From an uncultured bacterium (GTDB lineage: Bacteria > Patescibacteriota > Doudnabacteria > UBA920), in the NCBI GenBank assembly GCA_963749445.1, contig CAVVMJ010000007.1:9971-73970 (forward strand): a stretch of DNA of 64,000 bases. Direction: 5' to 3'. This document shows positions 7,966-63,932 of the stretch, piece by piece (position 1 is the first letter of the stretch; the number at the start of each line of letters is the position of its first letter). Below the pieces are notes generated by a model, which saw only the letters and a list, made by a program, of their open reading frames with translations, was not told the DNA's origin and searched no databases. The translations under genes and the position numbers were made by a program.

Positions 7966-8350
7966 TTAATCGGAATTATCGGATCTGAAATTCTTCCAAT
8001 TGGTTATTAGTCGATTAATTTGCTTGGATACTATTTTATAGTGCTTGATTAGTGCTTCGCAGGTTTCGGGTTTAATATTCGGGAAACCAATGAGTTTAAT
8101 TTGTCTTAGATGGGTTATAACTTCATCCGAAGATCCCAACGCAATCCGCAAGTAACGCTTGAATTCTTTTTCCGAATTTCGTTTGGCAAAACCTTCGGTA
8201 ATTTGCGCCGGAACTCCTTTTGCCGCGCCCGTTAACTGGTCTTTTGTCCGAAACTCATTTTTTGGCAACAAATCTGCTAACCGGTAAATCGGCCTAATCA
8301 ACTTCATTGACCTTCTGATAAACCTCTAAATCCTCAACATCCTTTATCAT
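7966..8350 (-). pseudogene. four-helix-bundle protein (Avd / 23S rRNA intervening-sequence protein family), frameshifted near N-terminus
   Basis: Track ORF 7966..8307 reads ...GAAKGVPAQITEGFAKRNSEKEFKRYLRIALGSSDEVITHL. The family N-terminus MIKDVEDLEVYQK is encoded from ATG 8350 in another frame. One extra nt near 8308-8314 separates YQK from SMKLIRPIYRLA. Confidence 0.7.
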
Positions 8351-8394
8351 AATTAAAAAATTAAGACCGGTTTTTATTGCCTATATCCATCCAA

Positions 8395-9978
8395 CTATCC
8401 GACCTCCGATTTATCCGACATTCCGACATTCCGACATTCCGACATTCCGACATTCCGATTTATCCGAATCATACTCGTACTCTGGCTGACGTTTTGGATT
8501 TGCGTCTGCAAAATATATTGGACAATGGCAATGATGCTAAAGGACAGCAAAGCAATGGCTAAACCCAAAATGGCCCAGGTGATGGTCTTGCGCGCGGCCG
8601 TGACCGCCTCTTCGTTGCCCTGGGACATGACGTAGCGGAAGCCACCGATGACTATAAAAGCCACGGACCACAAAGCAATGACGCCCAAAAAGGCGCGCAT
8701 TATCAACAGCAAAGTCGCAGTCAAAGAATCCACGGGCAGGGGGTTATATAAACAATTGTTGGCATCGGGACCGGTACAATTAGCGGTGGAAGGAGTGCCG
8801 GCGGCAGAACATGTCCCTCCCGTGGCGGCTGAACATATCTGCCCGGAACTGCAAGTCCCCTGCTGCCCGGGACCTCCGGTACAAGAAGCACCAGGCGCGA
8901 CAGCCGCGGTCGGACTTACAGTAATATTAAAAGTAGTCGGTCCAACCCCATTTAACGCTGTGGTTCCGTCAGCGGCCACCGGAGTCGCGACAATTGAATT
9001 AACGCCGCTAATATTAAAACCGGAGTTTGCGTCCAAGGTAAAATTTTGGCTCCATTGTTTTGAACTGTCAAGTTTTACATCTTGATTACCCGCGTGCACC
9101 AATAAAATGCCGCCACTGGGCATATTGGTGGCAGAAATTGTTATGGTAGTTCCGGGCGCATAAGTACTATTGGCCGCAGGCGGCGATAAAACAACCGTCG
9201 GCGCGTTACCACTTGCGCCTGTGGCCTGAGTTAAAGTATAAGTTTGATCATAAATTCCCTTGCCGCTACTATCAGTCAGGACAAATCTTAACTTGTTATC
9301 CCCATTGCTAATAAATCCATTTGTGGCATTTACCGCTATTTGGTTGCCGCCTGAGTATATTGCAACAAAGTGATTATTATCGTTGACATAAATGTTTCCC
9401 TGCGCACCGGGCGGAAAATCTGTATAAGTAATTTTTAAGGTATCGCCAATTTTAGCGGTAGGCGGTGAAACTGTAAAGTTAAACCCCTCTCCTAAAGGAT
9501 TATTAGAAACATTTAGCTGTTTTCCCCAATTTTTTGTATCTCCCAAGTCACCCAAACTTGAATGAACATCCAAATAGTAAGGAAAAATGTAATCTGACCC
9601 TGACTTGGTAACATCACTCCAACGGGAAAAATTTGATAAATTAAAAGGGCAGTCAATATTAACATTGTTAGGAACAGGCGGGCTGACCTGGCACCTGGCC
9701 AAATACCAAGGGCTACCACTGATAGGGGCAATAAAATCAAACTCCATGATATTATTGGCACTACAGCCGTTTGTATTAACTATGGTATTAAATTTTGCCG
9801 AATCGCCTTTATAAATTCTGGTTGGAACTGCCTCCATAGAGGTAATTTGCACCTGGCAAATTCCTGCGGCTATTGCAGATTTTATGAATCCACGCCCAAA
9901 AACCCCGGCCAGCATCAATAAAATTATGACGCTGCTTTTTAGTGCGCTTAATATTTTATTGTACTTGTTCTGCGTCAT
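8395..9978 (-). CDS. TrbC/VirB2-like pilin-family protein with about 400-aa N-terminal ectodomain
   Basis: Signal SSVIILLMLAGVFG, a beta-rich repeated ectodomain and a Cys/Gly/Thr linker (CTGGPGQQGTCSSGQICSAATGGTCSAAG). Core is GGFRYVMSQGNEEAVTAARKTITWAILGLAIALLSF. The last about 25 codons run into the CCGACATT tandem repeat. Confidence 0.75.
   Translation of the reverse strand: MTQNKYNKILSALKSSVIILLMLAGVFGRGFIKSAIAAGICQVQITSMEAVPTRIYKGDSAKFNTIVNTNGCSANNIMEFDFIAPISGSPWYLARCQVSPPVPNNVNIDCPFNLSNFSRWSDVTKSGSDYIFPYYLDVHSSLGDLGDTKNWGKQLNVSNNPLGEGFNFTVSPPTAKIGDTLKITYTDFPPGAQGNIYVNDNNHFVAIYSGGNQIAVNATNGFISNGDNKLRFVLTDSSGKGIYDQTYTLTQATGASGNAPTVVLSPPAANSTYAPGTTITISATNMPSGGILLVHAGNQDVKLDSSKQWSQNFTLDANSGFNISGVNSIVATPVAADGTTALNGVGPTTFNITVSPTAAVAPGASCTGGPGQQGTCSSGQICSAATGGTCSAAGTPSTANCTGPDANNCLYNPLPVDSLTATLLLIMRAFLGVIALWSVAFIVIGGFRYVMSQGNEEAVTAARKTITWAILGLAIALLSFSIIAIVQYILQTQIQNVSQSTSMIRINRNVGMSECRNVGMSDKSEVG
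8415..8460. repeat. tandem octamer (CCGACATT) x5 plus partial copy
   Basis: ccgacatt repeated five times from 8415 to 8454, then ccgatt. It forms the 3' tail of the 527-aa pilin ORF. Confidence 0.9.
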
Positions 9979-9990
9979 ACTTTTTGATTT

Positions 9991-10485
9991 TTACTTCCCT
10001 GCCGGCGCGATGCCTTCTTCCACGTTATAGGAATTTGGGACGCAGGTATAACTGCTCGGGTTGGTCAAAGTAATGTAAGTCCACGGACTGGCAAAATCAA
10101 TTTTGCATTTGGACATTAATAGAATATTAACTGCGGTATTGACGAACATATACGCGGCCACGACCACAAAAAATCCTATGAATACCTGGGTTAACGCTCC
10201 CTTGTGTTTGGTAATGTCCTCCTCGTTGCCGCTGCTCGCCACCAGCCAAAAAGAATGTTCAACAATCTTGTAAACCGCGTAAAGCCCGGCCATGGCTATC
10301 AGCCAGTTGGTCACCCGCGCCACCCCGTAAAAAGCGTCCAAAACTCCGCAGGGATGATTATCCGTCGGCCCGCTGCCGCCGCAGGGAACTAGTCCAGCGG
10401 CATGGACGAAAAATGGCATAGAAAAAGCTATTGTTATTGTTAAGATTACCGCAACTAAAAGCCTTTTTTGTTTCAAGATAATCAT
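9991..10485 (-). CDS. TrbC/VirB2-like (T4SS-pilin family) membrane protein, divergent member
   Basis: Signal LLVAVILTITIAFSMPFFVHA; core FWLVASSGNEEDITKHKGALTQVFIGFFVVVAAY. First gene of the minus-strand pilin array. Confidence 0.7.
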   Translation of the reverse strand: MIILKQKRLLVAVILTITIAFSMPFFVHAAGLVPCGGSGPTDNHPCGVLDAFYGVARVTNWLIAMAGLYAVYKIVEHSFWLVASSGNEEDITKHKGALTQVFIGFFVVVAAYMFVNTAVNILLMSKCKIDFASPWTYITLTNPSSYTCVPNSYNVEEGIAPAGK

Positions 10486-10542
10486 TTTTCTACAATAACT
10501 CTACCACATTTTTGGCAAATTTTCAATTTTTGTCGCTTTGTT

Positions 10543-10619
10543 GAAATTGCGAGGGCGTGCATCCGACCGAAGCAATCCCCAAAAAATAACCGGATTGCTC
10601 CGGCCACCCTCGCAATTTC
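10543..10619. repeat. palindromic element, GAAATTGCGAGG...CCTCGCAATTTC family
   Basis: GAAATTGCGAGGG...GAAGCAATCCCC...GGATTGCTCCGG...CCCTCGCAATTTC. Same termini and core as the copies at 28170, 43436 and 48538. Confidence 0.75.
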
Positions 10620-10727: not shown

Positions 10728-12024
10728 TCACTGCCCCGCAGTGATTGCGGCCGCTTGTTGTTCGGCTTGACTAAGCGAATCCTGCGCGCTCAACCCGTTT
10801 AAAATTACGTTATCAATCGCCTTGCCGAAAATGTTGTCCATCTTGGCCTGGTCCGGGCGGTAAAAAGATTTAGCGGTAAGGTTGGCGTTGGCAAACACGC
10901 CGATGTCCGGGTCCGGAATTTGCAGCTCAATAAGGTCGCGGCGCGAAGACGGCACTTTGTTTTGCGCGTAATATTGGTCCAGGCTGTCCTTGCTCGTTAA
11001 AAATTTTACCAAATCCCAGGCTGCGGCCAGTTCTTACTCTGTTTGCTCACCACCTCTCCCCAGTAGTTGGCAAAATTCACGGATGGGTTATTCAAATCCG
11101 GCTGCGGCACGCCGGCCACGTCAAAATTCAAATTGGGAGATTTTTGTAAGATGGTGGCGCGACTATAGGAATAGCTGTACAAAAACGCGGCGCGGCCGTT
11201 GGCAAAAGCGTCAATGGAATAATCGCTTTGGGCGTTCCAGTTGTAATTAGGGCTGGAAGGATTGGCAAAAGATGTGTAAAAACTCAAAGCACTGACTCCG
11301 GGATTGGTAAAATTGCCGTTTTTCTGAACCGGGTCGGCAAAAGTCGGCTGCATGCCGGTATAAGGCATGGTGCCCTGCTGCAGCATCATCAAATACAAAA
11401 TATCCACCGCGCGATTGACATTGGCGTTAGTACCTAATGCTACGCCGCTTTGCAAAAAATAACCGTGGCTGTCCTGCCGCTTGATTTTCTGCACATCCGT
11501 TGCCAGCTCGCTCCAGGTCTTCGGCGGCGTGGCAATCCCCGCGCTGCCCATCATATCCTTGTTATAATACAGCGCCAAAGAATCCACGGACATGGCCGCG
11601 CCGTAAATTTTTCCTGGCTGGTAAAATCGTTGACCACCGCGTCCACAAAGGTATCCTTAAAATCCTTCAAAGTAAAAATGGAAGCCGGCGAAGGCGTGGC
11701 TTTGTCCAAATACTGCGGCAGCCAGGCGTTGTTGATGGAAAAAATATCCGGCCCGTTGCCTGCGGCCAAAGCGTTCAGCAAATCCTGCTGGTAAGTGTTA
11801 ATGTCTTTTTTGGTGTAGACGATGGTAATATTGGGATTTTTTTGGCGGTAAGCGTCGAGCAGCGGCTGCAGGCTTTGGCTGTCCATAAACGGATTCCACA
11901 TGGTCAGGGTAATATTCCGCTGAACCGTAGTTGTCCCTCCCCCGCCGCATCCCGCCGCAAGCAAACTAAGGCCGATGGCGGATAAAAGCAATTTTGGTTT
12001 GAAAAATTTTCTTTTTGGTTTCAT
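10728..12024 (-). pseudogene. ABC transporter extracellular solute-binding lipoprotein (family 1), two frameshifts
   Basis: Three track ORFs (11551..12024, 11006..11593, 10728..11012) are consecutive parts of one SBP. Lipobox is LSLLAAGCGG. Junction 1 ...NDFTSQEKFT / PGKIYGAAMSVDSLALYYNKD lies near 11615; junction 2 ...VVSKQSKN / ELAAAWDLVKFLTSKDSL lies near 11030. Confidence 0.8.
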
Positions 12025-13038: not shown

Positions 13039-13041
13039 CTT

Positions 13042-13122: not shown

Positions 13123-13125
13123 AGA

Positions 13126-15638: not shown

Positions 15639-15653
15639 TTATCAAAACTCTCG

Positions 15654-15822
15654 GGCAGGGCTTACGCATTGGCCAAGTGCGAGGCATTTTGCGAGGATGT
15701 TTGGAGGCGTACTAAAGGTACGACGACAAACACCGCAGCAAAATAACGAAGCAATTGGCCAAAGCCACTTTTTTGGAACCCGGACTTCCTCTGCCAAAAA
15801 ACGGCGGTGCGTAAGTCCTGCC
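15654..15822. ncRNA. candidate structured RNA (169 nt, three-way architecture), class unknown
   Basis: Closing helix 15654-15667 / 15809-15822: 14 bp, with one G-U on + (A-C on minus). Next helix is built on TTGGCCAA at 15669-15676 and 15755-15762. Further helices: ATTTTGC/GCAAAAT, GTTTG/CAAAC and hairpin CGTAC-TAAAG-GTACG. A side hairpin TTTTTTGG (15769-15776) / CCAAAAAA (15794-15801) carries a 17-nt loop. Confidence 0.5.
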
Positions 15823-15851
15823 AAAATTGAAAAAGCGCCCCGGTTAGGGGC
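15821..15851 (-). terminator. terminator-like hairpin
   Basis: GCCCC (15837-15841) pairs with GGGGC (15847-15851). On the minus strand it is followed by GCUUUUUCAAUUUUGG; the + strand tail is weaker (CGUUUAUAAAAU). Confidence 0.45.
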
Positions 15852-16486
15852 CGTTTATAAAATAAAATGCCCACGCGAGGCGCTTGTAACCCGAAATTAA
15901 TCGGATACGCTTCGCGCAAACGAGTTGCGCAAAGAATACCACACTGTTAATTCCAGGCCTTCCCAACTTTACAGTCGGGAGAAAGCGTCTGAAGTCCAAT
16001 CGCATTTCAAACTGCACTCTAAACTTCTCTTGTGGTAGTTTAACAACTACCTAAAAACTTTGATTGCCTATTTTGGGCAATTAATGCTAATCCATTGGGG
16101 AATAAATTAGCCTACATTTTTGTTTTTGTTTTTCAAACAGCTTAGATTGGAATAAGCTATGACGAGAAGTTTAAAGGAAAATACCCTCAAATATCAAAAT
16201 TAAGAGCAACTTCCTTTAGTTCAGTTTACCTCGACCTTGCGTCGGGGTTTGAAATCAATTTTTAAAGTGCTTTTGTTTCCGAATCTGCTTGAATAACTGT
16301 GTATTTATCATAGCAATGTTTGCCTAAAATGTCAATTACTGACGTCTTTTGTAACTAAACTCCTTTTAAATAAAAGCGATTTAAATTTTGCTGATATAAG
16401 TTGGCTTGCTTTACCGAATTTTTGATTATTTTATCTTTTGGGGATAACCCATATAAACCTTTTAATTATGCCGGGAATAGGAAAAT

Positions 16487-18799
16487 TTAATCACCTTTGG
16501 TCAGCCTAATCCTAAAAAGAGATTTTAAATGGTTCTGATATAATTCCTTATATTTAAAAGCTTTTTTTGCATCTAGAATTATAATTTGTTTCAATTTGGC
16601 TGTATAAAAAAATCGCAGTAAACTTTGAAAGTCATACATGCTCCGCGGCAAGAAAAACTCCCTATCCGGATCAGCAGACTTTTGAGCCAAAGCTTTGCTA
16701 TAAGGATCAGCTACTTTCATACTTGGCCACTGCGAAAAAATGACGGTTTTTGCCTGCAATTGGGCCACCGGCTGGACCTGCTGGACGGAGCGCAAAAAAT
16801 TTAAAACCCCGCTGCTGCTTATTAAAAGCAAGCTGTCTTTATGGATACTGAAATTGCGGAACAGTCTGTTGCTTCCTCCGCCGCTGCGTTCAACCAATAA
16901 AAACGCGCGCTTTTTCAGTTCTCCGTAATATTCTTTGTAAAGCTTCGTAATTTCCGCCGGCGAGTCAAACACCATTACTGCCGGCAAGTCGGCTTTGCTT
17001 AAAATTTTGACGGGATTTGAATCGACGGCCGGCGTAATCCGGCAAATCGGCTGATGATGCAGAATTCCGACTAATTTGCTTCGTAATTTTTTTACCGGCC
17101 ATGGTATCAAAGAAAATTTCCCCATACCGAGGCGATTAATAAAATAGTCGAGCGCGACTTGTTCTCCTTGCGGTTCAATGACGCAAACCTTTTCAAAGCC
17201 TGAAAAACTTTTGCCAACGATGCCGCCAATATCTAGCGGCAAGGAATGGAAACTGCAGGAACGCTCCCCAAAACTTATCCATTTTACTTCCGTAGGCCTA
17301 TCCTCAAAAAAATCCTTGAGGTTACTGGCAAAGTCCGTGAGGCTTTGGAGCTTTAAACTTTGGTTTGCCGATGATAACTTTTCCGTAAAATTTTCCGCGG
17401 CACTCATAATCTTTAAAAATTCTTCGGAATTTCTTAATTCATCCGTTACGCTCACTTCGCCCCAGCCTTTGTTAAATTTTAACAATAGCGCGTTGGTCAA
17501 ACCAAAAAATAAATCCGCGTCCGAAAGCAATCGGCTGATAATATCTCTATATTCGGCATCGCCAAAGCCGGTTTCCGGATCGTAAACGGTTTTTAATAAA
17601 TAAGATAAAAAGCCCCAGCTGCTGCGCTGCCCAATAGTAGCCGTGATTACGGCCTCAAAATCACCAAGACCGATAACAATCAGGCCGCGCTGGCGGAATA
17701 GCTCGGAACTTTTCAATTCTAAAAAAGTTTGCTGGTCGCAACATAACACCCTATCGGGTAATTTCTCCGGCAGTTGCCGGCCTGAAACCAAACCCTGAAA
17801 CTGACCGCCGAAAAATGACAGATTCAAATCCAACAAGCACTCCGTTTGCCAATTTGTGGCCTGCCAAACCAAAAGCTTCATTAAAAACCTAGCCTGCTCC
17901 GGATTTTGGATGTCCTGATGAAGCAGTACTTCAAATTTTTGGCGGTCAAACATATGCCGCGGCTGGAAAATTCCCCGCGCCAAATTTTGCCGCCATGTTT
18001 CCAAAACCTGATAGCGCTTGGGTACCACAATCAGCAGTCGCTCGGCTGTCCGGCTGACAATTTGCCCGATAATATCCTCAACGGGAACAAAAGGGTCAAC
18101 GATGTAAACCGTTTTGTCCTGCATAACAACAGAGCCCAAGCGTGATTTAGCCACTGATATTTTTTTGACTGGTTTGGCTGGCTCTAATTTGTAGGGTTTG
18201 ATTTTTGCTTTTAACAAATCCGACCACGGAGCCTTGACGCGTTCCGCCAGTCCGGTAATCTGGGTCTTAGCTTCGTTGGGCAAACTTTGATAAACGCCGA
18301 GCAGCCGCTCCAGCAACTCCATGGATGCCATGGCGTCCGCCAAAGCGCGGTGCGCGTTTTTGTGCGAAATTTTAAAAATACTCGCCAAATTTTCCAAATT
18401 GTAACTATGATGCGTAGGCAGCAAAAACTGCACCAAGTCCATAGTGTCAATTACCGGCCCGAAAAATTTTATGCCGCACTTTTGCAAAAACTTAATGTCA
18501 AAACCCACGTTATGCCCAACTATCGCCGCCGTCCCCAGCTTCCCCTGCAAAAAAAACAGCTCGTCCGAAATCGCGCCGCCTTTTTCTAGGTCGGCTGATG
18601 TGAGTCCAGTCAGTCCCAAAACATGGTGCGACACCTCGCCCTTTGGCTTAAACACCCTGTCCCATTTTTCAACAATCCGAAATCCGAAATCCGAAATCCG
18701 AAATCCGGCTATCCCCACTTCCAAAATCTCATTGGTTACCGGGTCAAACCCGCTCGTCTCAATATCCAAGCTGTAATAAATTTTTTCTTGATTTGCCAT
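16487..18799 (-). CDS. DnaQ-like 3'-5' exonuclease fused to a DinG-like C-terminal region
   Basis: DEDDh motifs YYSLDIETSGFDP, GHNVGFDIKFL and HRALADAMA. About 560 aa follow in which I see no Walker A. ATG 18799 (MANQEK) avoids overlap with the upstream TrmB gene (the track start 18844 overlaps it). Confidence 0.75.
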   Translation of the reverse strand: MANQEKIYYSLDIETSGFDPVTNEILEVGIAGFRISDFGFRIVEKWDRVFKPKGEVSHHVLGLTGLTSADLEKGGAISDELFFLQGKLGTAAIVGHNVGFDIKFLQKCGIKFFGPVIDTMDLVQFLLPTHHSYNLENLASIFKISHKNAHRALADAMASMELLERLLGVYQSLPNEAKTQITGLAERVKAPWSDLLKAKIKPYKLEPAKPVKKISVAKSRLGSVVMQDKTVYIVDPFVPVEDIIGQIVSRTAERLLIVVPKRYQVLETWRQNLARGIFQPRHMFDRQKFEVLLHQDIQNPEQARFLMKLLVWQATNWQTECLLDLNLSFFGGQFQGLVSGRQLPEKLPDRVLCCDQQTFLELKSSELFRQRGLIVIGLGDFEAVITATIGQRSSWGFLSYLLKTVYDPETGFGDAEYRDIISRLLSDADLFFGLTNALLLKFNKGWGEVSVTDELRNSEEFLKIMSAAENFTEKLSSANQSLKLQSLTDFASNLKDFFEDRPTEVKWISFGERSCSFHSLPLDIGGIVGKSFSGFEKVCVIEPQGEQVALDYFINRLGMGKFSLIPWPVKKLRSKLVGILHHQPICRITPAVDSNPVKILSKADLPAVMVFDSPAEITKLYKEYYGELKKRAFLLVERSGGGSNRLFRNFSIHKDSLLLISSSGVLNFLRSVQQVQPVAQLQAKTVIFSQWPSMKVADPYSKALAQKSADPDREFFLPRSMYDFQSLLRFFYTAKLKQIIILDAKKAFKYKELYQNHLKSLFRIRLTKGD
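18677..18707. repeat. tandem heptamer (CCGAAAT) x4 inside the exonuclease CDS
   Basis: ccgaaat x4 (18677-18704) plus ccg. Encodes GFRISDFGFRI between exonuclease motifs I and II. Confidence 0.9.
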
Positions 18800-19547: not shown

Positions 19548-19718
19548 AAAATTGCGTTTACGATGCTTTTTTGATATTTGTCGAAACTTTTCGACTACAT
19601 AAATATTATATAATAATGCCTTATTTATGTCAACTATTGATAATAAAACTGTTATTAGTCGAATATTATTAACATCGTACGACAAAACTGTTATGCTTGC
19701 AGATTATAAGGAGGAAGT

Positions 19719-20102
19719 ATGCGCTTTGAATCCCAACAGACTACACACGGTCTACCGACAGTTGCCATCGACGACTTCGAAAAGCTCGGCAAAGGAGAGC
19801 TTCTCTGGTTTTTCCTTTTACGGATACAACGCCGCTGGAGACCATGGACTAACCGACGTCTTATGAGAGTTAGCTCAGACAATGGTGTGGTGTTCGTCAA
19901 CAACTTTCTTAACAGATTGCCGAAAGAACTGATTTGCTCCGGGGGTGAGGGAACCCACGGTCTGATCTGCAAAGGTGATGACGGCAAAATAAACGTGCTC
20001 TTGGGCTCTTGGGGGCCAGAACTTTCACTCCCCCTTGCGAAACAGGCTGTTCAGTTGCTGTCCGAAGCCGGCCTACCAGCCAAAATCTTCGGAAAAGAAT
20101 AG
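19719..20102 (+). CDS. hypothetical protein (SD-bearing orphan divergent from TrmB regulator)
   Basis: ATG 19719 has AGGAGG at 19709-19714. 127 aa with no recognisable family. Followed by a strong terminator. Confidence 0.5.
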   Translation: MRFESQQTTHGLPTVAIDDFEKLGKGELLWFFLLRIQRRWRPWTNRRLMRVSSDNGVVFVNNFLNRLPKELICSGGEGTHGLICKGDDGKINVLLGSWGPELSLPLAKQAVQLLSEAGLPAKIFGKE

Positions 20103-20138
20103 CCTCCAATCCCTGCCGTCTGCCACTAAAAAACGCAA

Positions 20139-20208
20139 AACCGCCCCGGGCAACCTGTCCTCCGTAGCTTTATGCGGAGGAGGGATGCGAAGGGCGGTTG
20201 TTTTTTTA
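20139..20208 (+). terminator. compound rho-independent terminator
   Basis: Outer stem AACCGCCC (20139-20146) / GGGCGGTT (20192-20199), inner CCTCCG/CGGAGG, then GTTTTTTT. Confidence 0.65.
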
Positions 20209-20214
20209 TACATT

Positions 20215-20478
20215 TTACGGTTTATATTCCAGCCCAATCTTGGAGCCGGCTTTTGTAATCCAATTTTCTGTGGTCGTGACTCTGCTGTTTACAACCAAAA
20301 TTTCATCGGCATTTTTCTTTGTGCCAACCGCAAAGGATTCCACGGACGCTTGGAGGTTATTAAAATCCTTGCGCTGACCTTCAAACTTTTCATCCATTTC
20401 CAGCTTATCGTAAAATAACTGTTTGTTGGCCTCAATCACCTTATTCACAATTTTAGTTGTGTCTTCGTCGGTAATCAT
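20215..20478 (-). CDS. hypothetical small protein
   Basis: 87-aa ORF MITDEDTTKIVNKVIEANKQLFYDKLEMDEKFEGQRKDF..., co-oriented with and downstream of recA. No family recognised. Confidence 0.5.
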   Translation of the reverse strand: MITDEDTTKIVNKVIEANKQLFYDKLEMDEKFEGQRKDFNNLQASVESFAVGTKKNADEILVVNSRVTTTENWITKAGSKIGLEYKP

Positions 20479-26329: not shown

Positions 26330-27091
26330 ATGGAAATAAAGGAAATCTGCGAAGCGTACTCCGCGAGTGATGACGTCGCGTTGTTGAAAGCTTTGAACGA
26401 ATTCAGCCTTCGGCTGTCTTATTCTTGCCATTCGATTGGGCCAGCCGCCACGGCAATGCAGTTGCGCGAAACTCATCTGCTTGGGATCTTAAACAAGACC
26501 GCGGCTGAGGCAGAAGATAAGCCGGGGGGGTCTTTAGCTTTGGTAGTTGGACGCCTCTCCGCTTACATCCATTTTGTTGGACTAATCGCTGACCGTGAGC
26601 GTGTAGATTCGGTGGTCGCCCAGCTGTCTGATCTCCCTAACGCCGACTTGACTAACTTTTTCCTCAGAAATAGCTTCTGCCAAGGAGGACTGCGTCGTGA
26701 ACAGTTAGTTTACGCAGCCGCACGCTTTATCAAAGTCAAGGACGTTTTGGCGAGGTCTCGGTTCAGGCAACTTTTACGGATGGAGATGATTGAGTCATTC
26801 AAGGTGTACGAGACGCTGGAGGCGCAAGCGGAGGATCGGGCAGTGTTGCATTACAAGATAACCCATCTTGGCGAGGCAGTCCTGGAGCGCCTCATGCACC
26901 CGCACGAACTTGCGCTGTGGTTTGTAGATGAAGCGGCGTTTAATCCAGAACTGCGCGCCGCGATGAGGAACGAGATTAAACACACGTGGCCACTGGAAGA
27001 CCTGACGGTGCCTGACGCGGAACTACGCGCCATAACCGCAAGGCGGGATGAGATTAAACGCAAATGGTCATCAGATGAGCCGTCCGTCTGA
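26330..27091 (+). CDS. hypothetical protein (SD-bearing orphan divergent from TrmB regulator)
   Basis: ATG 26330 has AGGAGG at 26315-26320. 253 aa, helical, with a possible wHTH-like stretch RFRQLLRMEMIESFKVYETLEAQAEDRAVLHYKITHLGEAVLERL. No family recognised. Confidence 0.55.
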   Translation: MEIKEICEAYSASDDVALLKALNEFSLRLSYSCHSIGPAATAMQLRETHLLGILNKTAAEAEDKPGGSLALVVGRLSAYIHFVGLIADRERVDSVVAQLSDLPNADLTNFFLRNSFCQGGLRREQLVYAAARFIKVKDVLARSRFRQLLRMEMIESFKVYETLEAQAEDRAVLHYKITHLGEAVLERLMHPHELALWFVDEAAFNPELRAAMRNEIKHTWPLEDLTVPDAELRAITARRDEIKRKWSSDEPSV

Positions 27092-27174: not shown

Positions 27175-27290
27175 GTATTTTCACCCCTCCCTAACCCTCC
27201 CCCTCCAGGGGAGGGGAATAAAGAACGAAAAATCCCGCTCCGAATGGGGCGGGATTCCTATATGCTAATTACTAAATGCTATCTGCTAAT

Positions 27291-27888
27291 TACAAGCCCT
27301 TAACTTTAACCTTCTTCGTCTTCGCCTTCGCGGCCTTGGGGATTATTACCGTCAATATCCCGTCCTTCAAATCCGCCTCTATCTGCTCGCTGTCAATGTC
27401 TACCGGAATTATGACCGAGCGGGAAAATTGCCCCAGTAGCATTCCTGGTAAAAATAATCGTCCTGAACAATGGCTTCCTCTTTTTTGCGCGCGCCACGGA
27501 TAGTCACCATGTCGTTGGCCACGGTGATGTCAATGTCCTCGGGTTTGACGCCGGCAATGGTGGACTTGATAATCACGTTGTCCTTGGTCTGGTACATGTC
27601 TATGTTCAGCTGCCCTTCAAAATCCGACATCCATTCCTCGCCGCCGTTATTGTTGGCCCCGGCCGGAGCCACAACCGCGGGCTTGGCCGCCGCCGGAATT
27701 TCCGTAACCTGCTCCTCTATTAACACAGTTTCCTGCTCGTCGTCGTCGTCGGCATCGGCACCCAGCTCTTCGGCCTCCACAGTTTGCTGCGCCATGCCCT
27801 GTGAAACGCGCGGCTGTTGGATGTCTTCATCTGTCACACTGCCCCCCATAATTTTCCCGAAAAACGAAGCTCTGTCTTTCTTGGCCAT
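27291..27888 (-). CDS. Hsp20/alpha-crystallin small heat-shock protein, interrupted by a 1-nt frameshift as sequenced
   Basis: The track ORF ends ...VTIRGARKKEEAIVQDDYFYQECYWGNFPARS*. A second frame continues QFSRSVIIPVDIDSEQIEADLKDGILTVIIPKAAKAKTKKVKVKGL* to stop 27291-27293. Shift near 27412-27425. Confidence 0.8.
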
Positions 27889-28279: not shown

Positions 28280-29367
28280 TTAATTCCCGCCGGCCAAGTA
28301 CTGCGCCAAACTAGCGGCTGCGGAAGGGTAAGCAAGCAGCTGATGAGCGGCCGGATTATTTTCCAAAGACTGCCGAAAGTCACCGGCATCCAGCTCCTGC
28401 CTGATTTGTTGCAAAACATCTTTGGCCTCGGGCATAATCAAACGTTGCCTTCGCAAATATTCCAAATTCAACTTTTCCTGGCCGGGCAGCATAGAAGTTA
28501 TAATCATCGGTAAACCAAAACGCAAAGCTTCGGACGTGGACAGGCCGCCGGGCTTGGTTAAAAAAATATCCGCGATGGCGTAAAGCTCATCCATGGGTTG
28601 ATAAAAGCCGACTACGGAAATGTTGGCATGATGATGCCGCCCCGATAATTTTTCGCGGATGATTTGATTATTGCCGCAAACCACTATGGTATGCCAATTT
28701 GGGCGCGCGGATAATTGGGCTAGCAGACGATTATTAAGGCCTATGCCGAGTGAACCGCTACCTAACACTATAACTTTTTGATTATCGCTGATGTTAAACT
28801 TGGCGCGCACCGCCTGTTTATCAACGGCTAAAGGCGTGGACAAATTGAATCCGGTGACAAAGATTTTATTTGCCGATATACCCGCGTTAACCATTTGCTG
28901 TTTTTGCTCCTCGATGTTCACCAAATAAAAATCCGCCTGACGATAAAGCCAATACGGATGCAAATGGTAATCACTAAAGGCAATACCAAATGGATTTTTG
29001 TAATATCCTTTCTTCTTTAAATACGCAATGACTGCCGAAGCCGCGGTCTGGGTAGTAATAATAATATCGGGCTGATATTCATCAACCAAAACCTTGGCGC
29101 TTTTATAATTAAACCCCGCAATGTATACGCGGAAAGGCAAAATTAGATAATGCCCAAAACGGTAAATAAAGCCCCAGACAAACGGCAAGTACTTATTGAT
29201 AAACTGATGAATGCCAACGACGATCTGTTCAAATTTACCCTTTTGCACAGCGCCGATATCGGCCAATTTAACCTCAAACCCGCCCTCTCTTAAAGACCGG
29301 CCGATGTTTTCAGCAATGGTCTTGTGTCCAGGCCTACTGAAGTGTGTACAATTAAAATTCTTTTCAT
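28280..29367 (-). CDS. GT28-family glycosyltransferase (MGDG synthase/UgtP-like), N-terminal frameshift as sequenced
   Basis: The track ORF starts at ...KLADIGAVQKG. Upstream, ATG 29367 gives MKRILIVHTSVG, then another frame gives PGHKTIAENIGRSLREGGFEVKLADIG. Shift near 29323-29336. C-terminal FLTKPGGLSTSEAL motif. Confidence 0.7.
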
Positions 29368-41617: not shown

Positions 41618-42398
41618 TCAGGTGATAAATTTTTTCAAAATCTCTGCAAACTCCTCCGGCTGGTCCAAAAAACTAAAATGCCCGGCGTTTTTTAGAATTG
41701 CGAATTGCGAATTGCGAATTAACGAATTCATTTTTTTGCCAAAACTGACAGGGGTGTCCGCGTCGTTTTCACCGCTGATAATTAAGGTTGGACATTTTAT
41801 ATTTTCCATATCGGACGATAAATCTTCGCCTGTGATGTTAACAAACGTTTTTTGCAGTTCCGGCGTAGCCAGGTAATCTTCCGCGTCGATTTTTTGGTAG
41901 ATTTTTTTCCTCAATCCTTGCATAAATGCCGACTTAAAAAACGGTTTTGCGATTTTTGCCGCGGACCGATAAAAATTTTTCTTGGGTGTGTCCATGGCAA
42001 ACCCCGCGCTGTCCACCAAAACCAATTTTCTGACAAGTTCCGGATGCGCAGATGACAATTTTATCCCAACCCTTCCCCCAAACGAATGACCGATAACAAT
42101 TACGTCAGTCAAATCCAATTTTTTTATAAACTCCGCCACCACTTCCGCATAATCCCCCACCGTCATCGGCAACTTCAGGAGCCTGTGATCCGCCAAACCC
42201 GGGTAAATCTATAGCAAACAATTGACGATTGACGATTGACGATTGACTCATCACGTTCGCCCAAACTTCCTTGCTGCTCCGCCATCCGTGCAAAAACAGC
42301 AGAGTCCCCGCGCCCTGGCTTTTATCCTCGCTGTAGCTGATTAACAAATCCTTGATGATTATCTGCTTATCCATATCTATATAATACCATTGCTTCAT
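41618..42398 (-). CDS. alpha/beta-fold hydrolase, interrupted by a frameshift as sequenced
   Basis: The N-terminal part reads LLFLHGWRSSKEVW...FAIDLPGFGGS. The C-terminal part reads ...MTVGDYAEVVAEFIKKLDLTDVIVIGHSFGGRVG (nucleophile elbow GHSFGG) ...AGHFSFLDQP. Shift near 42185-42200. Confidence 0.8.
41695..41720. repeat. tandem heptamer (GAATTGC) x3.7 inside hydrolase CDS
   Basis: gaattgc x3 plus gaatt. Encodes NSQFAIL in the minus-strand gene. Confidence 0.9.
42221..42247. repeat. tandem heptamer (ATTGACG) x3.9 inside hydrolase CDS
   Basis: attgacg x3 plus attgac. Encodes QSSIVNRQ in the minus-strand gene. Confidence 0.9.
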
Positions 42399-45068: not shown

Positions 45069-45435
45069 AGGAACAATTTTTATTGCCCTGATGGCTTACG
45101 GATACTACCGCCATCCGGTTTTAGATTTTTGGACAATTGCCGGCGGCGTGCTGTTCATAGTTGGAGCAATATTGGGCGTGACGGCTCGCCACGAGTTGGC
45201 GGAGTGTTTTTCGGGCACGCCAAAAGCCAAGAGAATCGTCCATTCCGGAATTTATGCCAAAATCCGCCACCCGATTTATATCGGAGGATTATTAATTTGC
45301 GTTAGCTTATGCCTGCTGTACCGGAATTTGATTTTTTATTCCGTTTTATTAATTATCTTTGTTATCCAAAGTATTCGAGCCAGAGCAGAAGAAAAACTTT
45401 TGCTCAAAACCTTTGGACAAGAATATATAAATTAG
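45037..45435 (+). CDS. isoprenylcysteine carboxyl methyltransferase (ICMT/PEMT) family protein, C-terminus truncated by IS insertion
   Basis: GIYAKIRHPIYIGGLLICVSL...RARAEEKLLLKTFGQEY. The present stop TAG (45433-45435) is formed at the IS junction. The pre-insertion reading would continue YKKSTWF*. Confidence 0.75.
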   Translation: MTKAQKVNLIEGTIFIALMAYGYYRHPVLDFWTIAGGVLFIVGAILGVTARHELAECFSGTPKAKRIVHSGIYAKIRHPIYIGGLLICVSLCLLYRNLIFYSVLLIIFVIQSIRARAEEKLLLKTFGQEYIN

Positions 45436-46462
45436 GCTTAATGGTAAATATTAGTGCTTAGATTTCGGCGTTTGTGCCATACTTAAGATAAATAATTAAC
45501 TTTGATTATGTATGGCTTGTAAAAAAAGTGCCCAAGATGCCGTTCTTCGGCAATTATTAAGAAAGGGAAACAGTTAGGGCTCCAGCGTTACCAGTGCAAG
45601 AATTGCGGAAAGAATTTTGAGAATAAACGGCGTAAACAGAAACTTCAACGCGCCCTCTGGCGGCAATACATCTGGGGCAAACAAACAGTTAAGCAGCTGG
45701 TTAAAAAATATCAGCGGAGTGAAAAGTGGATTCGGCAGCAGCTGGATAAAGCTCCTACAAAGTCATTTCGCCTTTATCCGCAACCTGTAGTTGCCATCGC
45801 TGATTGCACATTCTGGGGTCGGGGTTACGGGGTGTTGGTTTTTAGATCCTTTGACCTTAAACAGAACCTGTACTGGACGGAGGTTAAAACTGAAACGGCT
45901 GATGTGTATCGGGAAGCCAGACAACTGCTGGAAGAATTGGGCTACACCTTTGAAGCAGTGGTCTTAGACGGTAAAAAGGGCGTCAGAGAAGTGTTTTCCG
46001 ACATTCCGGTACAAGTCTGCCAGTTCCACCAAATGGCCATCGTTACCAGGTATTTGACCAAACGGCCGAAGCTGGAAGCGGGAAAAGAACTGCGGATGAT
46101 TGCCTTGGCTTTAACTGAATTAACTGAAAACATGTTGCTGTTGTTGCTGGATGCCTGGCATGAAAAATGGGGAGACTTTTTAAAAGAACGAACCGTTAAT
46201 CCCTTTAATCCTAAAAAGTGGTTTTACACCCACAAGCGAATTAGGTCTGCTTATCGGAGTTTGAAAACCAACGCGCCTTACCTGTTTACTTACCAACGAT
46301 ATACCGGTTTAAATATTCCCAATACTACGAATTCTTTAGACGGCAGTTTTAAATATCTTAAACAACTGATTGGCATCCATAGCGGTCTGAAACGCGACAG
46401 GCGCTGGCGGTTAATCGAGGAAGTTTTAGCCGGTTTCAAGCACTAGAATTTACCATTAAACC
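45435..46462 (+). mobile_element. IS element (IS1/IS1595-like), 1028 bp, with 8-bp target-site duplication
   Basis: IRL GGCTTAATGGTAAAT (45435-45449) faces IRR ATTTACCATTAAACC (46448-46462), a 14/15 match. Flanking direct repeat ATAAATTA at 45427-45434 and 46463-46470. Confidence 0.85.
45512..46446 (+). pseudogene. DDE transposase with N-terminal zinc ribbon, frameshifted in an A7 run
   Basis: ATG 45512 gives MACKK; the A7 run is at 45521-45527. The next frame reads CPRCRSSAIIKKGKQLGLQRYQCKNCGKNF...AIADCTFWGRGYGVLVFRSFD...VVLDGKKG...NTTNSLDGSFKYLK to stop 46446. One extra A would join the frames. Confidence 0.8.
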
Positions 46463-46576
46463 ATAAATTACAAAAAATCCACTTGGTTTTAAAAACCCCT
46501 CTTTACCAAAAAGGGGATTAAATGGGTTATCTGCGGTTATCCGTATATCCGTATCCTATCCGTACTCCGTAGACGT

Positions 46577-51128: not shown

Positions 51129-51247
51129 ACTTTGTGCTTTTCTTTATTTTAGCACAAAAAAACCGAACTTTGCTCCAAATAGCTCGGCCTCCTGAACGAC
51201 GTTCGTACCTGTGTGGAAATTGCCCCGGTTTAACCCCGACTAGTACT

Positions 51248-52245
51248 TTAAACTTGGTTATCTAAATCTTTAGCATTAACACCCATTTTTTTATAATAGC
51301 AATCAGCCAGTTCCTGTAATTTTTTTAAGTTGGACAACATTTCTTCTTCTAAAAGCAACGGCCTATAAGTATCCATTATAATCCTAATAAGTAAACCGGC
51401 CACAAAAATACAATCTACGTACGCGTTCTGGACATCTTTGTCTGATGAACTGCCCCCAACGTTTATCCGAACCTGTAAACGTCCGTCTTTGACACCGCCT
51501 TGTGTAACCTTTGATTGAATGTACTTAAAAGTGGCGTGGAACCCATTTCTGAAAATTTGCTATAATATTCGTCTCGGGCTGGCTTACCTAATTTTTTTCT
51601 TACGGCAGCAGGTTTTAACTCTTCCCAACGTTCTTTTGTATCTTCGCCGGCCCAAAGTTTTATAAGTTCAGGACGCAGATTGAATAGCTCTATTTTATCA
51701 ATAATGTCTAAAACAATTCTCGTATGCGCTATGGATTGCGGCGCAAATCTATGCTCTGCCAGGTGATATGCGACAACAATTTCATCTATAGCGGAGAACA
51801 ACAAACCCAACTTCGCCATATCTGCTGACTTTAAACCGCTGTCCGAAACGTCAGAAAGATAATTAAGTAAAGTTTGCCCTATAAAAATAAAAATCTCTTT
51901 TGCTTCCGCAGCCAAGTTAGTTGTTGGGTTGGGCGCTTTATTTAAACTATCCAGGAAAGTATTCAGGTCAAAATGTTCATTTTTAACTTGTTTGGATAGC
52001 CGCAGGGCTTTCCTTTTGTCTAAACTGTCTGGCTTACTTTTCCAAGTTTTAGTAATTTCATCATTTGCTTCTTCCAGAAGTTTAATTTGTTTATCAATCA
52101 GCTCTTTTGCCTCGGGTGTTAACTCTTCATAATGTTCCGACGCAAATTTGAGGTGTTCGGATATAGCATTAGCTAAATCCGCTTCTGTCTTGGCTTGTGT
52201 TGCTGCGTCTTTAAGTTTATTTTTTAAGAAATCGGCATCAATCAT
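51248..52245 (-). CDS. hypothetical helical protein (DUF5677/AbiV-like, tentative), C-terminal frameshift as sequenced
   Basis: The track ORF ends ...KTDVYRFG* at 51463. Another frame continues VGGSSSDKDVQNAYVDCIFVAGLLIRIIMDTYRPLLLEEEMLSNLKKLQELADCYYKKMGVNAKDLDNQV* to stop 51248-51250. The segment VVAYHLAEHRFAPQSIAHTRIVLDIIDKIELF recalls HEPN-type AbiV/DUF5677. Confidence 0.45.
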
Positions 52246-52573: not shown

Positions 52574-52786
52574 TTATGGCTTTCTCCATTTATCCCGGCC
52601 ACCGACTTTCGTATCCCGCACTCGTTCAACATGCGGAGCAACGCCGGGGTTTAATTCTTGAGCTATCTCGATCGCTTCTTGCTGGGTAGGAGCGGTTGCG
52701 GAAGCCCTATCCGCGTCCGCCCTTCTCACGGCGTAATCGCCTTGTTCGCGCCGCTCCACATACAATCTTTTGTCCGATTTACTCAT
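52574..52786 (-). CDS. DUF2188-like small protein
   Basis: MSKSDKRLYVERREQGDYAVRRADADRASATAPTQQEAIEIAQELNP...HVERVRDTKVGGRDKWR. A G+C-rich patch inside an AT-rich island. Confidence 0.55.
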   Translation of the reverse strand: MSKSDKRLYVERREQGDYAVRRADADRASATAPTQQEAIEIAQELNPGVAPHVERVRDTKVGGRDKWRKP

Positions 52787-52805
52787 AAGTAACAAAGTTA
52801 ATTTT

Positions 52806-59726: not shown

Positions 59727-59962
59727 TTAATGTATTGGCGGGCCGTCAGGCGGATTCTTGCCGTTGGTAACCACAAAGCTCACGCAATCGCCCTGGTTCT
59801 TGAACGTATCGCCAAAGTCTCGCCAGTCGTCTTTCTTGCACTGGTCTTTGCTGGTCGGCACAGTCGGCGGGGGGGCGGCGTAAAATCCGCCAAAGCTGTC
59901 CCGGCGGCGACAAACAAGCTTGCCGCGGCCAGCAAAGAGGAAACAACAATTTGTTTTTTCAT
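59727..59962 (-). CDS. small secreted Cys-containing protein, frame broken in a C7/G7 homopolymer
   Basis: Signal MKKQIVVSSLLAAASLFVAAGTALA DFT(P)PP, then the poly-C run (G7 at 59869-59875 on +). The next frame reads PPPTVPTSKDQCKKDDWRDFGDTFKNQGDCVSFVVTNGKNPPDGPPIH* to stop 59727-59729. Confidence 0.65.
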
Positions 59963-62249: not shown

Positions 62250-62439
62250 AGAAATTGGTAGAAATATGCCCCGATAAATCGGGACGAAATTTATTGAAAT
62301 TGGTTGCTGTAGGGGCGGGTCTAGACCCGCCCTTTTCTTTGCCCGAAAACGGATTTAGCCTGCCCTTGCCCAAACTGTGGAAATTGATTATACTATGGGG
62401 CTGATATAATAAATATTGAAGCGAGATTATCTAGTTGTG

Positions 62440-62509
62440 CCATCCCGACCGAAGTGGATGGATCTATTATTAACAGATTCCTCGGCTCGGATGCACTCGA
62501 TCGGAATGG
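62440..62509. repeat. family X palindromic element, short form
   Basis: CCATCCCGACCGAAGTGGATGGATCTATTATTAACAGATTCCTCGGCTCGGATGCACTCGATCGGAATGG. Ends 9 nt before the rbfA start. A half copy lies at 5025-5055. Confidence 0.7.
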
Positions 62510-62517
62510 AATAATGT

Positions 62518-62880
62518 ATGAGACCAGTAAAAAAAGACACCAACCGCATTGCCAAGGTCAATTCGCTAATTAGGCGCGAGTTGGGACCGATTTTGTTAGT
62601 GTTTTTACAGGGGATGGAGGGATTAGTGACCATTACCAAAGCCGACACCAGCAAGGATATGAAGTGGTGCAAGGTTTGGATTTCCATTTTGGGCGGAGAT
62701 GATGATAAAATTTTAGGTTATCTTGCAAAAAATATTTACGACATCCAGGGCGAGCTGAATAAATATTTTTTCACTAAAATTATCCCGCGGATTTCCTTTC
62801 ACCTGGATACCAGCCCAAGGTACGCGCAGCATATTGATGAAGTGATACGGAAGATACACGATGAAGAAGAGACAATTTAA
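62518..62880 (+). CDS. rbfA: ribosome-binding factor A
   Basis: RIAKVNSLIRRELGPIL...VTITKADTSKDMKWCKVWISIL...IPRISFHLDTS. Canonical position after infB. Confidence 0.9.
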   Translation: MRPVKKDTNRIAKVNSLIRRELGPILLVFLQGMEGLVTITKADTSKDMKWCKVWISILGGDDDKILGYLAKNIYDIQGELNKYFFTKIIPRISFHLDTSPRYAQHIDEVIRKIHDEEETI

Positions 62881-62946
62881 GAATTACGGATTGCGGATTA
62901 CGAATTCGTAATGCGCAATCCGTAATTAATAATTCCTATTAAGTTA

Positions 62947-63932
62947 ATGCAGCAAGATTTTATTAAAGCCAAACAACTAATTGACCAATCCCAAAACATC
63001 CTCCTGACAATGCATGAGCGGATGGACGGGGATGACGGCGGCAGCGTGCTGGCCGTTTTTCATCATTTGGCCAAAAACGGCAAGCAGGTCACCTGCGCCA
63101 TCAAAAAGGGCGTACCGCTCGCTTTGCGTTTTCTGCCCGGCAGCGAAAAAATCGCCGATGACATCAGCCATCAAAATTTTTCCGCCGAAGGCGGATCCGC
63201 CTCTGGCGGAGACTTTGATCTACTGATAATGTTCGGATGCTCTGCCAAAGACCGCTGCGGCAGCGAAGATATTATCAATTTGAACGTGCCTACGATTAAT
63301 TTTGACCACCATCCCGACAACTCCCATTTTGCCGACGTGAACGCCGTGGATCCGGCCAAATCTTCCGTGGCGGAGATAATTTATGACTTTTTCCGCTTCC
63401 ACAACTGGCCCATAACCCCCGAAGTCGCCACTTGTCTTTTGACCGGAATTATTACCGACACAGGCTCATTTATGCACGCCAACACCAAAAACTCTACGCT
63501 CAAAACCGCGGGCGAGCTGATGCGCAAAGGCGCCCAAACCAACCTTATCATTAAACACACTTCCCTGGGCAAAAATCCCCAAATTTTAAAAGCCTGGGAC
63601 AGGCTTTGGAAAACTCGCATTACGATAAAAAACACAAAATTATTTACGCTGTAATGACGGGAGAAGATTTACTCAATTTTAAAAACCTGCCGCAGGCGGC
63701 CTTTGAAGGATTCGTGGAAACGTTGAATACTTACCCGGATGCAAAGTTCGCCATGTTTTTGCGGCAGGACGGCGACGTAATTAAAGGCAGCCTGCGCTCC
63801 GACCCTTATAAAAATATTGATGTTTCCCAAATCGCCAAAGCCTTTGGCGGCGGCGGCCACAAACTGGCGGCGGGGTTTTCGCTGGCGGGAAAACTGACTA
63901 AGGACGAGGCGGGAAAATGGCGCGTAATTTAA
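62947..63932 (+). CDS. DHH-family phosphoesterase (NrnA-like), interrupted by a 1-nt frameshift as sequenced
   Basis: The N-terminal part has HERMDGDDGGSVLAV, FDHHPDN and GIITDTGSF. The C-terminal part (track 63606..63932) has SLRSDPYKNIDVSQIAKAFGGGGHKLAAG. Joined as QILKAWGQALENSHYDKK by adding one G at 63596-63598. Confidence 0.85.
63182..63209. repeat. 28-nt GGATCC-centred mini-palindrome inside the nrnA-like gene
   Basis: CCGCCGAAGGCGGATCCGCCTCTGGCGG encodes SAEGGSASGGD. It differs at 2 of 28 positions from the murA copy. Confidence 0.8.

Follow-up and report, generated by a model that had tools for sequence, protein, structure and literature searches.

Host-restricted bacteria such as Mycobacterium leprae and Sodalis are examples of recent pseudogenisation, and the reduced, host-dependent lifestyles of CPR bacteria count in favor of such a process here. 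Known cases of frameshifting or slippage comprise poly(A) slippage in endosymbionts, prfB, dnaX and the IS1/IS3 transposases, with both transcriptional slippage and programmed -1 frameshifting known from several IS families. Long-read or otherwise unpolished assemblies are, moreover, known to carry gene-fragmenting indel errors (Watson, 'Mind the gaps', bioRxiv 10.1101/285049; Kastor, PMC12007338). The DNA analysed here (the window, 64,000 nt) belongs to a 76,034-bp MAG contig whose source, a Patescibacteria/CPR bacterium, is related to Doudnabacteria.

The window resembles error-prone assemblies in that single-base indels break up intact genes into neighbouring ORFs that lie in different frames, that essential genes are among those affected, that many sites are short homopolymers and that an alternative assembly disagrees at one of the two sites it covers; it differs in three non-homopolymer insertions and in one site that is reproduced in a second assembly. 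With M. leprae and Sodalis it shares many frameshifted genes and a reduced genome, whereas nonsense mutations and deletions are lacking, only one gene is hit more than once, constraint is kept, the lesions reach cell-wall genes expected to be essential and a second assembly of the same strain lacks one of the frameshifts. As in prfB, dnaX or IS1/IS3, a one-base frame change is needed for the full protein and two runs of seven bases are involved, but there is no conserved signal, shifts occur in both directions and the orthologues use a single frame. We regard it as very probable that most or all of the frameshifts are residual single-base consensus indel errors of a metagenome-assembled contig.

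Frame changes and their repair

The initial annotation had reported thirteen single-nucleotide frameshifts in twelve otherwise intact genes, and all thirteen are confirmed in the window sequence. Gene coordinates, strand and lesion are as follows.

7966-8350, minus strand: 4HB gene (23S rRNA IVS protein, PF05635); one extra base at 8315
10728-12024, minus strand: solute-binding protein gene, first shift; one base missing at 11608-11614
Same gene, minus strand, second shift: 11021-11036; one base missing in a 28-nt interval, 11006-11033
27290-27888, minus strand: hsp20; one base missing at 27424-27433
28280-29367, minus strand: GT28 / MGDG-synthase-like glycosyltransferase gene; one base missing at 29328-29329, codon 13-14
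34549-35683/35707, minus strand: malic enzyme gene; one extra base in the G4 run 35365-35368 (C4 on the gene strand)
38891-40091, minus strand: ddl; one extra base at 39714-39720 in CAGGGGTTTG (G4 or T3 on the gene strand)
40110-41571, minus strand: murF-like ligase gene; one extra base at 41118, AAG[T]GAAG, possible range 5 nt (41116-41120)
41618-42398, minus strand: alpha/beta hydrolase gene; one extra base at 42170-42183, between ...GGSQ and LPMTV...
45512-46446, plus strand: IS256-family (Zn-binding variant) transposase gene in the IS element 45435-46462; one base missing in the A7 run 45521-45527
51247-52245, minus strand: DUF5677-like gene; one base missing at 51538-51544 (CC or GGG on the gene strand)
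59727-59962, minus strand: small secreted protein gene; one base missing at 59869-59875, G7 on the plus strand (C7 on the gene strand)
62947-63932, plus strand: nrnA-like DHH/DHHA1 phosphoesterase gene; one base missing at or near GGG, 63596-63598

One-base edits at the thirteen sites, two of them in the solute-binding gene (the only one with more than one shift), yield twelve ORFs of full length whose only stop is the terminal one, and the repaired proteins align continuously with Pfam/NCBIfam models, homologues or syntenic orthologues. A base is missing at eight sites (both in the solute-binding gene, hsp20, GT28, IS, DUF5677-like, secreted protein, nrnA) and extra at five (4HB, malic enzyme, ddl, murF, hydrolase). 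The switch points of a homology-free codon-usage Viterbi analysis agree with the listed shifts, and the same analysis found no further frameshifts in the window. Two positions given earlier had to be corrected, namely those of the DUF5677-like gene (51538-51544 instead of 51462) and of the hydrolase (about 42170-42183 instead of about 42190). Strand and position could also be specified for hsp20 (minus strand, 27424-27433), the secreted protein (minus strand, C7 on the gene strand) and 4HB (exactly 8315).

In-frame stops, larger deletions and second lesions were found in none of the affected genes, in line with the earlier statement that they show no decay; the spectrum consists of the thirteen single-base indels. 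Genuine frameshifts, i.e. very recent pseudogenisation in the CPR lineage or in the dominant strain of the sample that left the broken genes inactive, are very unlikely. Genome decay should have produced mixed lesions and relaxed constraint, whereas only single-base indels and similar sequence identity before and after the shifts were found. Moreover, about one in five genes would have to have lost function at the same time and only very recently, among them, as already pointed out in the initial annotation, cell-wall genes expected to be essential, namely the single-copy ddl and murF.

At about eight of the thirteen sites the lesion could be a change in a run of three or more bases (runs of 3-8 identical bases), while such runs make up about 25% of all positions in the window; real slippage mutations share this bias, and replication slippage at these sites would also suit pseudogenisation. 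Several sites had earlier been noted as short homopolymers; three sites, 4HB, murF and hydrolase, clearly lie outside runs. That these three are not homopolymer errors counts against the explanation by consensus errors.

Evidence at the individual sites

In the solute-binding gene the first shift lies within or beside a T5 run (11608-11612, A5 on the gene strand), as seen from three-frame tblastn of P0137, P0139 and P0140 and a Viterbi frame switch at 11602/3. Around the second, where no run exceeds three bases, homologue HSPs stop at 11036 and restart at 11021-11030, with the Viterbi switch at 11033/4. The repaired protein matches SBP_bac_1 over 8-304/307 with 114 bits, compared to 51.6 and 39.4 for the pieces.

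Orthologues from the syntenic relative L018 give two-frame tblastn pairs on the window with contiguous orthologue coordinates, and homologues of ddl, murF and the solute-binding protein are likewise contiguous across the frame pairs. For hsp20, the first tblastn segment covers orthologue residues 1-138 and stops at 27424, and the second (residues 136-182) begins at 27433, with ECYWGNFSRSV in the orthologue; on the gene strand a T5 was probably called as T4 (A4 at 27424-27427), and repair raises the HSP20 match from 27 bits for a piece to 72 bits (2-101/102). In the GT28 gene, GGG in place of GG yields SVGLGHK, where the orthologue has MKKILILYTAVGMGHKSIAENIGRS; orthologue residues 14-354 map from 29329, and the NF010135 alignment of the repaired protein begins at residue 2. 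The L018 malic enzyme matches in one frame up to 35366 (residues 1-106) and in another from 35367 onwards (residues 106-377), with Pfam domain matches found in the pieces as well as in the repaired protein.

The two Pfam domains of ddl lie in different frames, the switch falling at 39717 both with the orthologue and with homologues of 83% identity, and deletion from either run gives the same protein (...TIQGLFEM...). For murF the orthologue reads GSYGKTTMKEVL, whereas the window encodes GSYGKTTVK* and then EVLRSVL; after repair, Mur_ligase_M is matched over 1-199/200 with 94 bits instead of 71 for a piece. The hydrolase site contains no run longer than two bases. Here, the match to the orthologue covers residues 1-67 up to 42183 and then, in the other frame, residues 61-254, and the repaired protein scores 90 bits against Abhydrolase_1, compared to 59 and 23 for the pieces.

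The best-fitting repair of the DUF5677-like gene reads SEMGSHATF; position 51462 is the stop codon that arises from the shift. Homologues of 330-375 aa cross the junction in one stretch, with residues 1-240 of P0175 ending at 51538 and residues 239-326 starting at 51544. The C7 run of the secreted protein lies within a poly-proline stretch, and the repaired protein (78 aa) and its homologues of 74-79 aa align over their whole length at identities of up to 78%, those of 78 aa giving 100% coverage. In the nrnA-like gene, DHH is encoded in one frame and DHHA1 in the next, with a Viterbi switch at 63594/5; three nearby runs would each serve as the site of the missing base.

The A7 run of the transposase gene is located five codons past the ATG, and A8 is required to encode MACKKKCPRC...; in the main frame there is no start codon before 45832. 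Assignment to the IS256 family called for a family transposase that scores above its curated cut-off, for terminal inverted repeats and for a target duplication of 8-9 bp. The repaired transposase matches NF048019 over 2-300/304 with 322.8 bits (cut-off 150), and the element 45435-46462 has 25-nt inverted repeats (88% complementary) and is flanked by a perfect 8-bp target duplication, ATAAATTA; by all criteria tested it is an IS256-family element (Zn-binding variant). Since the inverted repeats are intact and the target duplication is perfect, the element looks recently active, and a dead transposase is thus unexpected.

This A7 run would be the most plausible single case of recoding, i.e. of programmed ribosomal frameshifting or transcriptional slippage, and the C7 run of the secreted protein would suit such a mechanism as well. 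As an explanation of the frameshifts, recoding is nevertheless extremely improbable. The sites share no common slippery heptamer or stimulatory element, their contexts are heterogeneous, both +1 and -1 changes occur, and the murF and 4HB sites offer no repeated base for slippage. Orthologues or homologues of hydrolase, murF, ddl, malic enzyme, GT28, hsp20, the secreted protein and the DUF5677-like gene encode their proteins in a single frame, so that in none of these eight genes do relatives share the frameshift. In IS1 and IS3 the shift lies at the junction of orfA and orfB, whereas the run at codon 5 does not fuse two ORFs, and the repaired transposase fits a single-ORF model from position 2.

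Comparison with Logan contigs and the closest relative

Logan contigs are built per SRA run straight from the reads, with Cuttlefish2 unitigs from which once-seen k-mers are dropped, Minia3 contigs and Prodigal calls (PMC12424806). Six contigs of run ERR10755942, from the same strain and possibly the run behind the window's own assembly, cover 14,952 nt of the window and include two of the thirteen sites (4HB and DUF5677-like). Over this length, four substitutions and two indels separate the two assemblies. Of the two indels, one corresponds to the extra G that the window has at 8315: contig L014 is otherwise identical over 1,481 nt, has TATCAAAGG on the gene strand where the window reads TATCA[G]AAGG, outside any homopolymer, and carries a gene call for an intact 127-aa PF05635 protein. 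At the other, 26352, it is Logan that lacks a base, whereby a gene that is intact in the window (253 aa) is truncated to 211 aa. When each of two otherwise identical sequences carries a private frameshift of its own, this is the signature of consensus noise.

The four substitutions are clustered in the fumarase gene and show strain microdiversity, so the difference at 8315 could in principle be a real polymorphism. The window might be a mosaic consensus of co-existing strains with real indels or alignment ambiguity, in which minority or chimeric states were chosen; more than one haplotype in the fumarase gene and the disagreement at 8315 and 26352 would fit such a collapsed mixture. We consider it very unlikely, as real frameshift polymorphisms in coding DNA are expected to be far rarer than SNPs, whereas two indels accompany four SNPs in 15 kb. 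It would, in any case, remain an assembly artefact and not a property of any single genome.

At the DUF5677-like site, contig L001 carries a frameshift identical to that of the window, which argues for pseudogenisation of this gene. Being seen in both assemblies, this shift goes back either to a systematic error or to a real mutation, and one or two sites (DUF5677-like and the IS A7 run) could be real. It is highly improbable that the frameshifts, or a substantial subset such as the DUF5677-like one, are real while functional Ddl, MurF and others are produced by error-prone transcription or translation; if true, the genome would tolerate widespread single-base frameshifts in essential genes. 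Support for the DUF5677-like shift from recurrent k-mers in the reads behind L001 is a point against the consensus-error reading.

Gene order in GCA_964474825.1, the closest complete relative, is that of the window. In this genome hydrolase, murF, ddl, malic enzyme, GT28 and hsp20 are uninterrupted and syntenic, and the orthologue of the secreted protein is uninterrupted as well; the comparison with the closest genome proposed earlier thus yielded intact copies of all orthologues tested, contrary to what pseudogenisation of the lineage would suggest. Identities to the orthologues before and after the shift amount to 72.6/72.4% (malic enzyme), 51.0/50.4% (murF), 55/62% (hydrolase) and 76/91% (hsp20), and no drop in conservation downstream of the shift was found for these four genes. 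Together with the 4HB shift missing from Logan, the private frameshift of Logan and the lack of other lesion types, the intact orthologues uphold the earlier preference for consensus errors over pseudogenisation, a choice that the initial annotation held the sequence by itself unable to make and that evidence from outside it now favours.

Consequences for annotation

With consensus error as the cause, the genes of the organism would be intact, the assembler or polisher having mis-counted one base per site, and because of this mis-count gene callers would return two or three fragments per affected gene. The reads behind the contig would presumably be indel-prone (long-read or low-coverage), and the same cause may be assumed to act at the eleven sites outside the Logan contigs. 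Most likely, the finding is thus an ordinary one that reflects no real biological feature, and the sequence needs polishing. Were the frameshifts real, a CPR bacterium would have lost peptidoglycan synthesis or would possess a recoding mechanism; the evidence points against this.

Fragment mis-annotation concerns about one in five genes of the window (which holds very roughly 60), including ddl, murF, malic enzyme and hsp20. MAG-based metabolic reconstructions, pseudogene counts and completeness estimates would be wrong, and if the rate of about one indel per 5 kb applies to the genome at large, the entire MAG probably suffers in the same way. Public protein collections already contain the fragment proteins, as singleton clusters.

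Frameshifts and their repair

The thirteen single-nucleotide frameshifts in twelve genes proposed in the initial annotation were confirmed. Every listed gene appears in the ORF list as neighbouring ORFs on the same strand in differing frames, and halves of single Pfam domains or of domain pairs fall in differing frames for the solute-binding protein (three pieces), malic enzyme, ddl, murF and the alpha/beta hydrolase. For each shift, the final stop in the downstream frame and the terminating stop of the upstream frame served as bounds, and a one-base repair was then made per gene. This gave full-length ORFs for 12 of 12 genes, and the Pfam matches of the repaired proteins are single, unbroken and higher-scoring.

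Affected genes: base change in the window; match of the repaired protein; identity to the orthologue before/after the shift
Four-helix-bundle gene (23S rRNA IVS protein), 8315: extra base, CA[G]AAGG
Solute-binding protein, 11608-11614 and 11021-11036: missing base, twice; SBP_bac_1 8-304/307, 114 bits
hsp20, 27424-27433, minus strand: missing base, T4 for T5; HSP20 2-101/102, 72 bits; 76/91%
GT28 glycosyltransferase, 29328-29329: missing base, GG for GGG; diglucosyl-diacylglycerol synthase model, aligned from residue 2
Malic enzyme, 35365-35368: extra base, C4; 72.6/72.4%
ddl, 39714-39720: extra base, G4 or T3
murF, 41118: extra base, AAG[T]GAAG, possible window 5 nt only; Mur_ligase_M 1-199/200, 94 bits; 51.0/50.4%
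Alpha/beta hydrolase, about 42170-42183: extra base; Abhydrolase_1, 90 bits; 55/62%
IS transposase, 45521-45527: missing base, A7 for A8; NF048019 (IS256 family, Zn-binding variant) 2-300/304, 323 bits
DUF5677-like gene, 51538-51544: missing base
Small secreted protein, 59869-59875, minus strand: missing base, C7 for C8
nrnA-like gene, 63596-63598: missing base, GGG; DHH plus DHHA1

The DUF5677-like gene and the small secreted protein have no match in Pfam or NCBIfam. The junction of the former is crossed in one stretch by homologues of 330-375 aa (full HMMER search), and the repaired secreted protein is 100% covered by homologues of 74-79 aa. Searches by tblastn with homologues and with six orthologues from the relative GCA_964474825.1 returned two-frame HSP sets (three-frame for the solute-binding protein) with contiguous query coordinates, which pins the site positions. 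Two of the originally listed coordinates had to be corrected. In the DUF5677-like gene, the alignment of the homologue P0175 stops at 51538 for residues 1-240 and resumes at 51544 for residues 239-326; the position first given, 51462, is where the shifted frame meets a stop. The hydrolase shift maps between GGSQ (42183) and LPMTV, and not to a nearby G5 run.

A codon-usage Viterbi model trained on long ORFs, in which homology is unused, recovers the same switch points as homology and yields no further frameshifts, the remaining same-strand switches being ordinary gene boundaries. Candidates of this model at 2762, 4184, 15294 and 18836 are normal gene boundaries or overlaps. Likewise, the DUF2188 gene (52574-52795) is complete, and an apparent upstream extension of the fumarase gene only reflects the far-upstream start called in the relative.

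Consensus error or gene decay

Residual consensus indel errors are very probably the cause at most or all sites; this explanation, preferred from the outset over pseudogenisation, is supported most directly by a second assembly and indirectly by the lesion spectrum and by intact orthologues. The lesions are single-base indels only, with one base missing at 8 sites and one base extra at 5, and nonsense codons, deletions or second lesions were not found in the twelve genes beyond the two shifts of the solute-binding protein. Identity to orthologues is equal on both sides of the shifts, with no decay downstream. The broken genes include ddl and murF.

The closest long relative fetched was GCA_964474825.1 (contig CAYYWQ010000001.1, 1.21 Mb), whose gene order equals that of the window from 42.4 kb down to 27 kb. 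The comparison with the closest genome proposed at the start shows all six affected genes of this syntenic block uninterrupted (255, 470, 394, 377, 358 and 182 aa), as is the orthologue of the secreted protein. Ddl is nearest to Patescibacteria/Doudnabacteria proteins (best full-length match 83% identity), and a scan of GTDB species representatives with a murF piece gave no close MurF, with 28% identity at most.

The observation that several sites lie in short homopolymers holds for, e.g., the hsp20, GT28, IS and secreted-protein runs, but not for the four-helix-bundle, murF and hydrolase sites, which are non-homopolymer. No motif is common to the 13 sites, and the shifts go in both directions. 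Homopolymer runs in the window number 69 at 7 bases and 9 at 8 bases, and none reaches 9. We considered whether these counts indicate compressed runs and rejected the idea; the same shape recurs in the GCA_964474825.1 locus, in the Logan contig L019 and in unrelated MAG loci, and thus reflects biology rather than an artefact.

A second assembly of the same strain

The window is part of a 76,034-bp contig recorded in NCBI and ENA. In Logan, each SRA run is assembled alone from its reads, with unitigs free of once-seen k-mers, Minia3 contigs and Prodigal gene calls (PMC12424806). Six Logan contigs of run ERR10755942 were compared with the window. Paper searches for this run and for GCA_964474825 gave no hits.

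Logan contigs and the window positions they cover
L014: 6962-8443
L017: 25308-27210
L015: 29474-33683
L013: 35766-37167
L016: 43522-45464
L001: 48609-52622

Over 14,952 nt the two assemblies differ by four substitutions and two indels. All substitutions (32999, 33394, 33443 and 33452, against L015) fall in a stretch of about 450 nt inside the fumarase (Lyase_1) gene, with none in the remaining roughly 14.5 kb compared, pointing to microdiversity among strains or to a short recombined tract. The first indel coincides precisely with the four-helix-bundle site as predicted: an extra G stands at 8315 in the window, and the Logan gene is intact, encoding a 127-aa PF05635 protein. The second is one A at 26352 that Logan lacks (GCGAGCG vs GCGAAGCG), giving a truncated gene call of 211 aa; in the window the gene (26330-27091) is intact at 253 aa and follows a strong AGGAGG ribosome-binding site. 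Thus both assemblies of this strain have a private frameshift, each in a gene that the other has intact, a pattern typical of consensus noise.

The Logan contigs cover two of the 13 sites, the remaining 11 falling between contigs. At the second covered site, within L001, Logan shows the same DUF5677-like frameshift as the window, which leaves a systematic error or a real mutation as its origin. This site could individually be real, the IS site less so. The fragment proteins ddl-N, murF-N, nrnA-N and hydrolase-N occur only in the NCBI/ENA record, consistent with the position of the 11 sites between contigs; of the intact genes that were tested, about half are in Logan too. The fragments ddl-N, malic-N, hsp20-N and P0091 were not found in the contig index. 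A chimeric query built from the junction segments of nine sites matched only proteins of 520-840 aa and none of the known fragments, an uninformative outcome because the search apparently filters by length. Exact look-ups of the repaired ddl, secreted protein, transposase and hsp20, with queries approximate at the junction, gave no match; these negatives are uninformative because junction guesses can be one residue off, as at the four-helix-bundle junction (YQRSM in Logan, YQKSM in the guessed repair).

On this explanation the MAG assembly would be indel-prone, probably long-read and low-depth. Residual indel errors in assemblies are a well-known problem (bioRxiv 10.1101/285049; PMC12007338). 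The biological interest of the frameshifts is low, and the contig, and probably the MAG as a whole, should be polished before its gene content is interpreted.

The IS element and other features

The transposase belongs to a small complete IS element of 1,028 bp (45435-46462, within 45427-46470), of the IS256 family, Zn-binding variant. Its 25-nt terminal inverted repeats (45435-45459 and 46438-46462) and perfect 8-bp target duplication (ATAAATTA) make it look recently active, which fits a true A8. The A7 run lies five codons past the ATG and thus does not act as an orfA/orfB fusion signal; no other start codon precedes 45832. A PEMT/ICMT-like methyltransferase gene carries the element at its extreme end, and the stop codon of that gene now straddles the IS boundary. 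L016 stops 30 nt into the left repeat, suggesting that the element is multi-copy in the sample; this contig end at 45464 is a repeat break (30 nt, k-1), with no causal role for the A7 run.

Short tandem repeats with a period of 7 or 8 nt occur at 8396-8467, 18674-18707, 41158-41193, 41695-41720 and 42221-42247, three of them 100% perfect and none coinciding with a frameshift site. Several lie within coding sequence (exonuclease-domain protein, murF, hydrolase (SSIVNRQ...)); another, (TCCGACAT)x5.6, is located just upstream of the four-helix-bundle gene, where L014 ends. Beside this 23S-rRNA-IVS-type gene is a group of three closely spaced genes with T4SS_pilin (PF18895) domains, of 234, 132 and 294 aa (5061-6173 and 7062-7946).

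In two stretches of 0.65-0.9 kb (15639-16522 and 19560-20217), the codon-usage model gives no convincing coding signal and Rfam gives no match at the gathering threshold. Four tRNAs are the only RNAs to pass in Rfam, and ARAGORN reports five. A block at 1811-4771 has raised G+C (0.577 at 2001-4000, about 0.46 elsewhere). Three overlapping proteins are encoded there (about 325, 470-500 and 195-212 aa), all membrane-rich and none matched by Pfam; the block may be foreign or fast-evolving. The MurF-like ligase (40110-41571) has a hydrophobic, apparently membrane-spanning N-terminal region of about 140 aa and no recognisable Mur ligase N-domain. Its 470-aa orthologue in GCA_964474825.1 aligns from its own residue 1, and this region thus appears common to both ligases.
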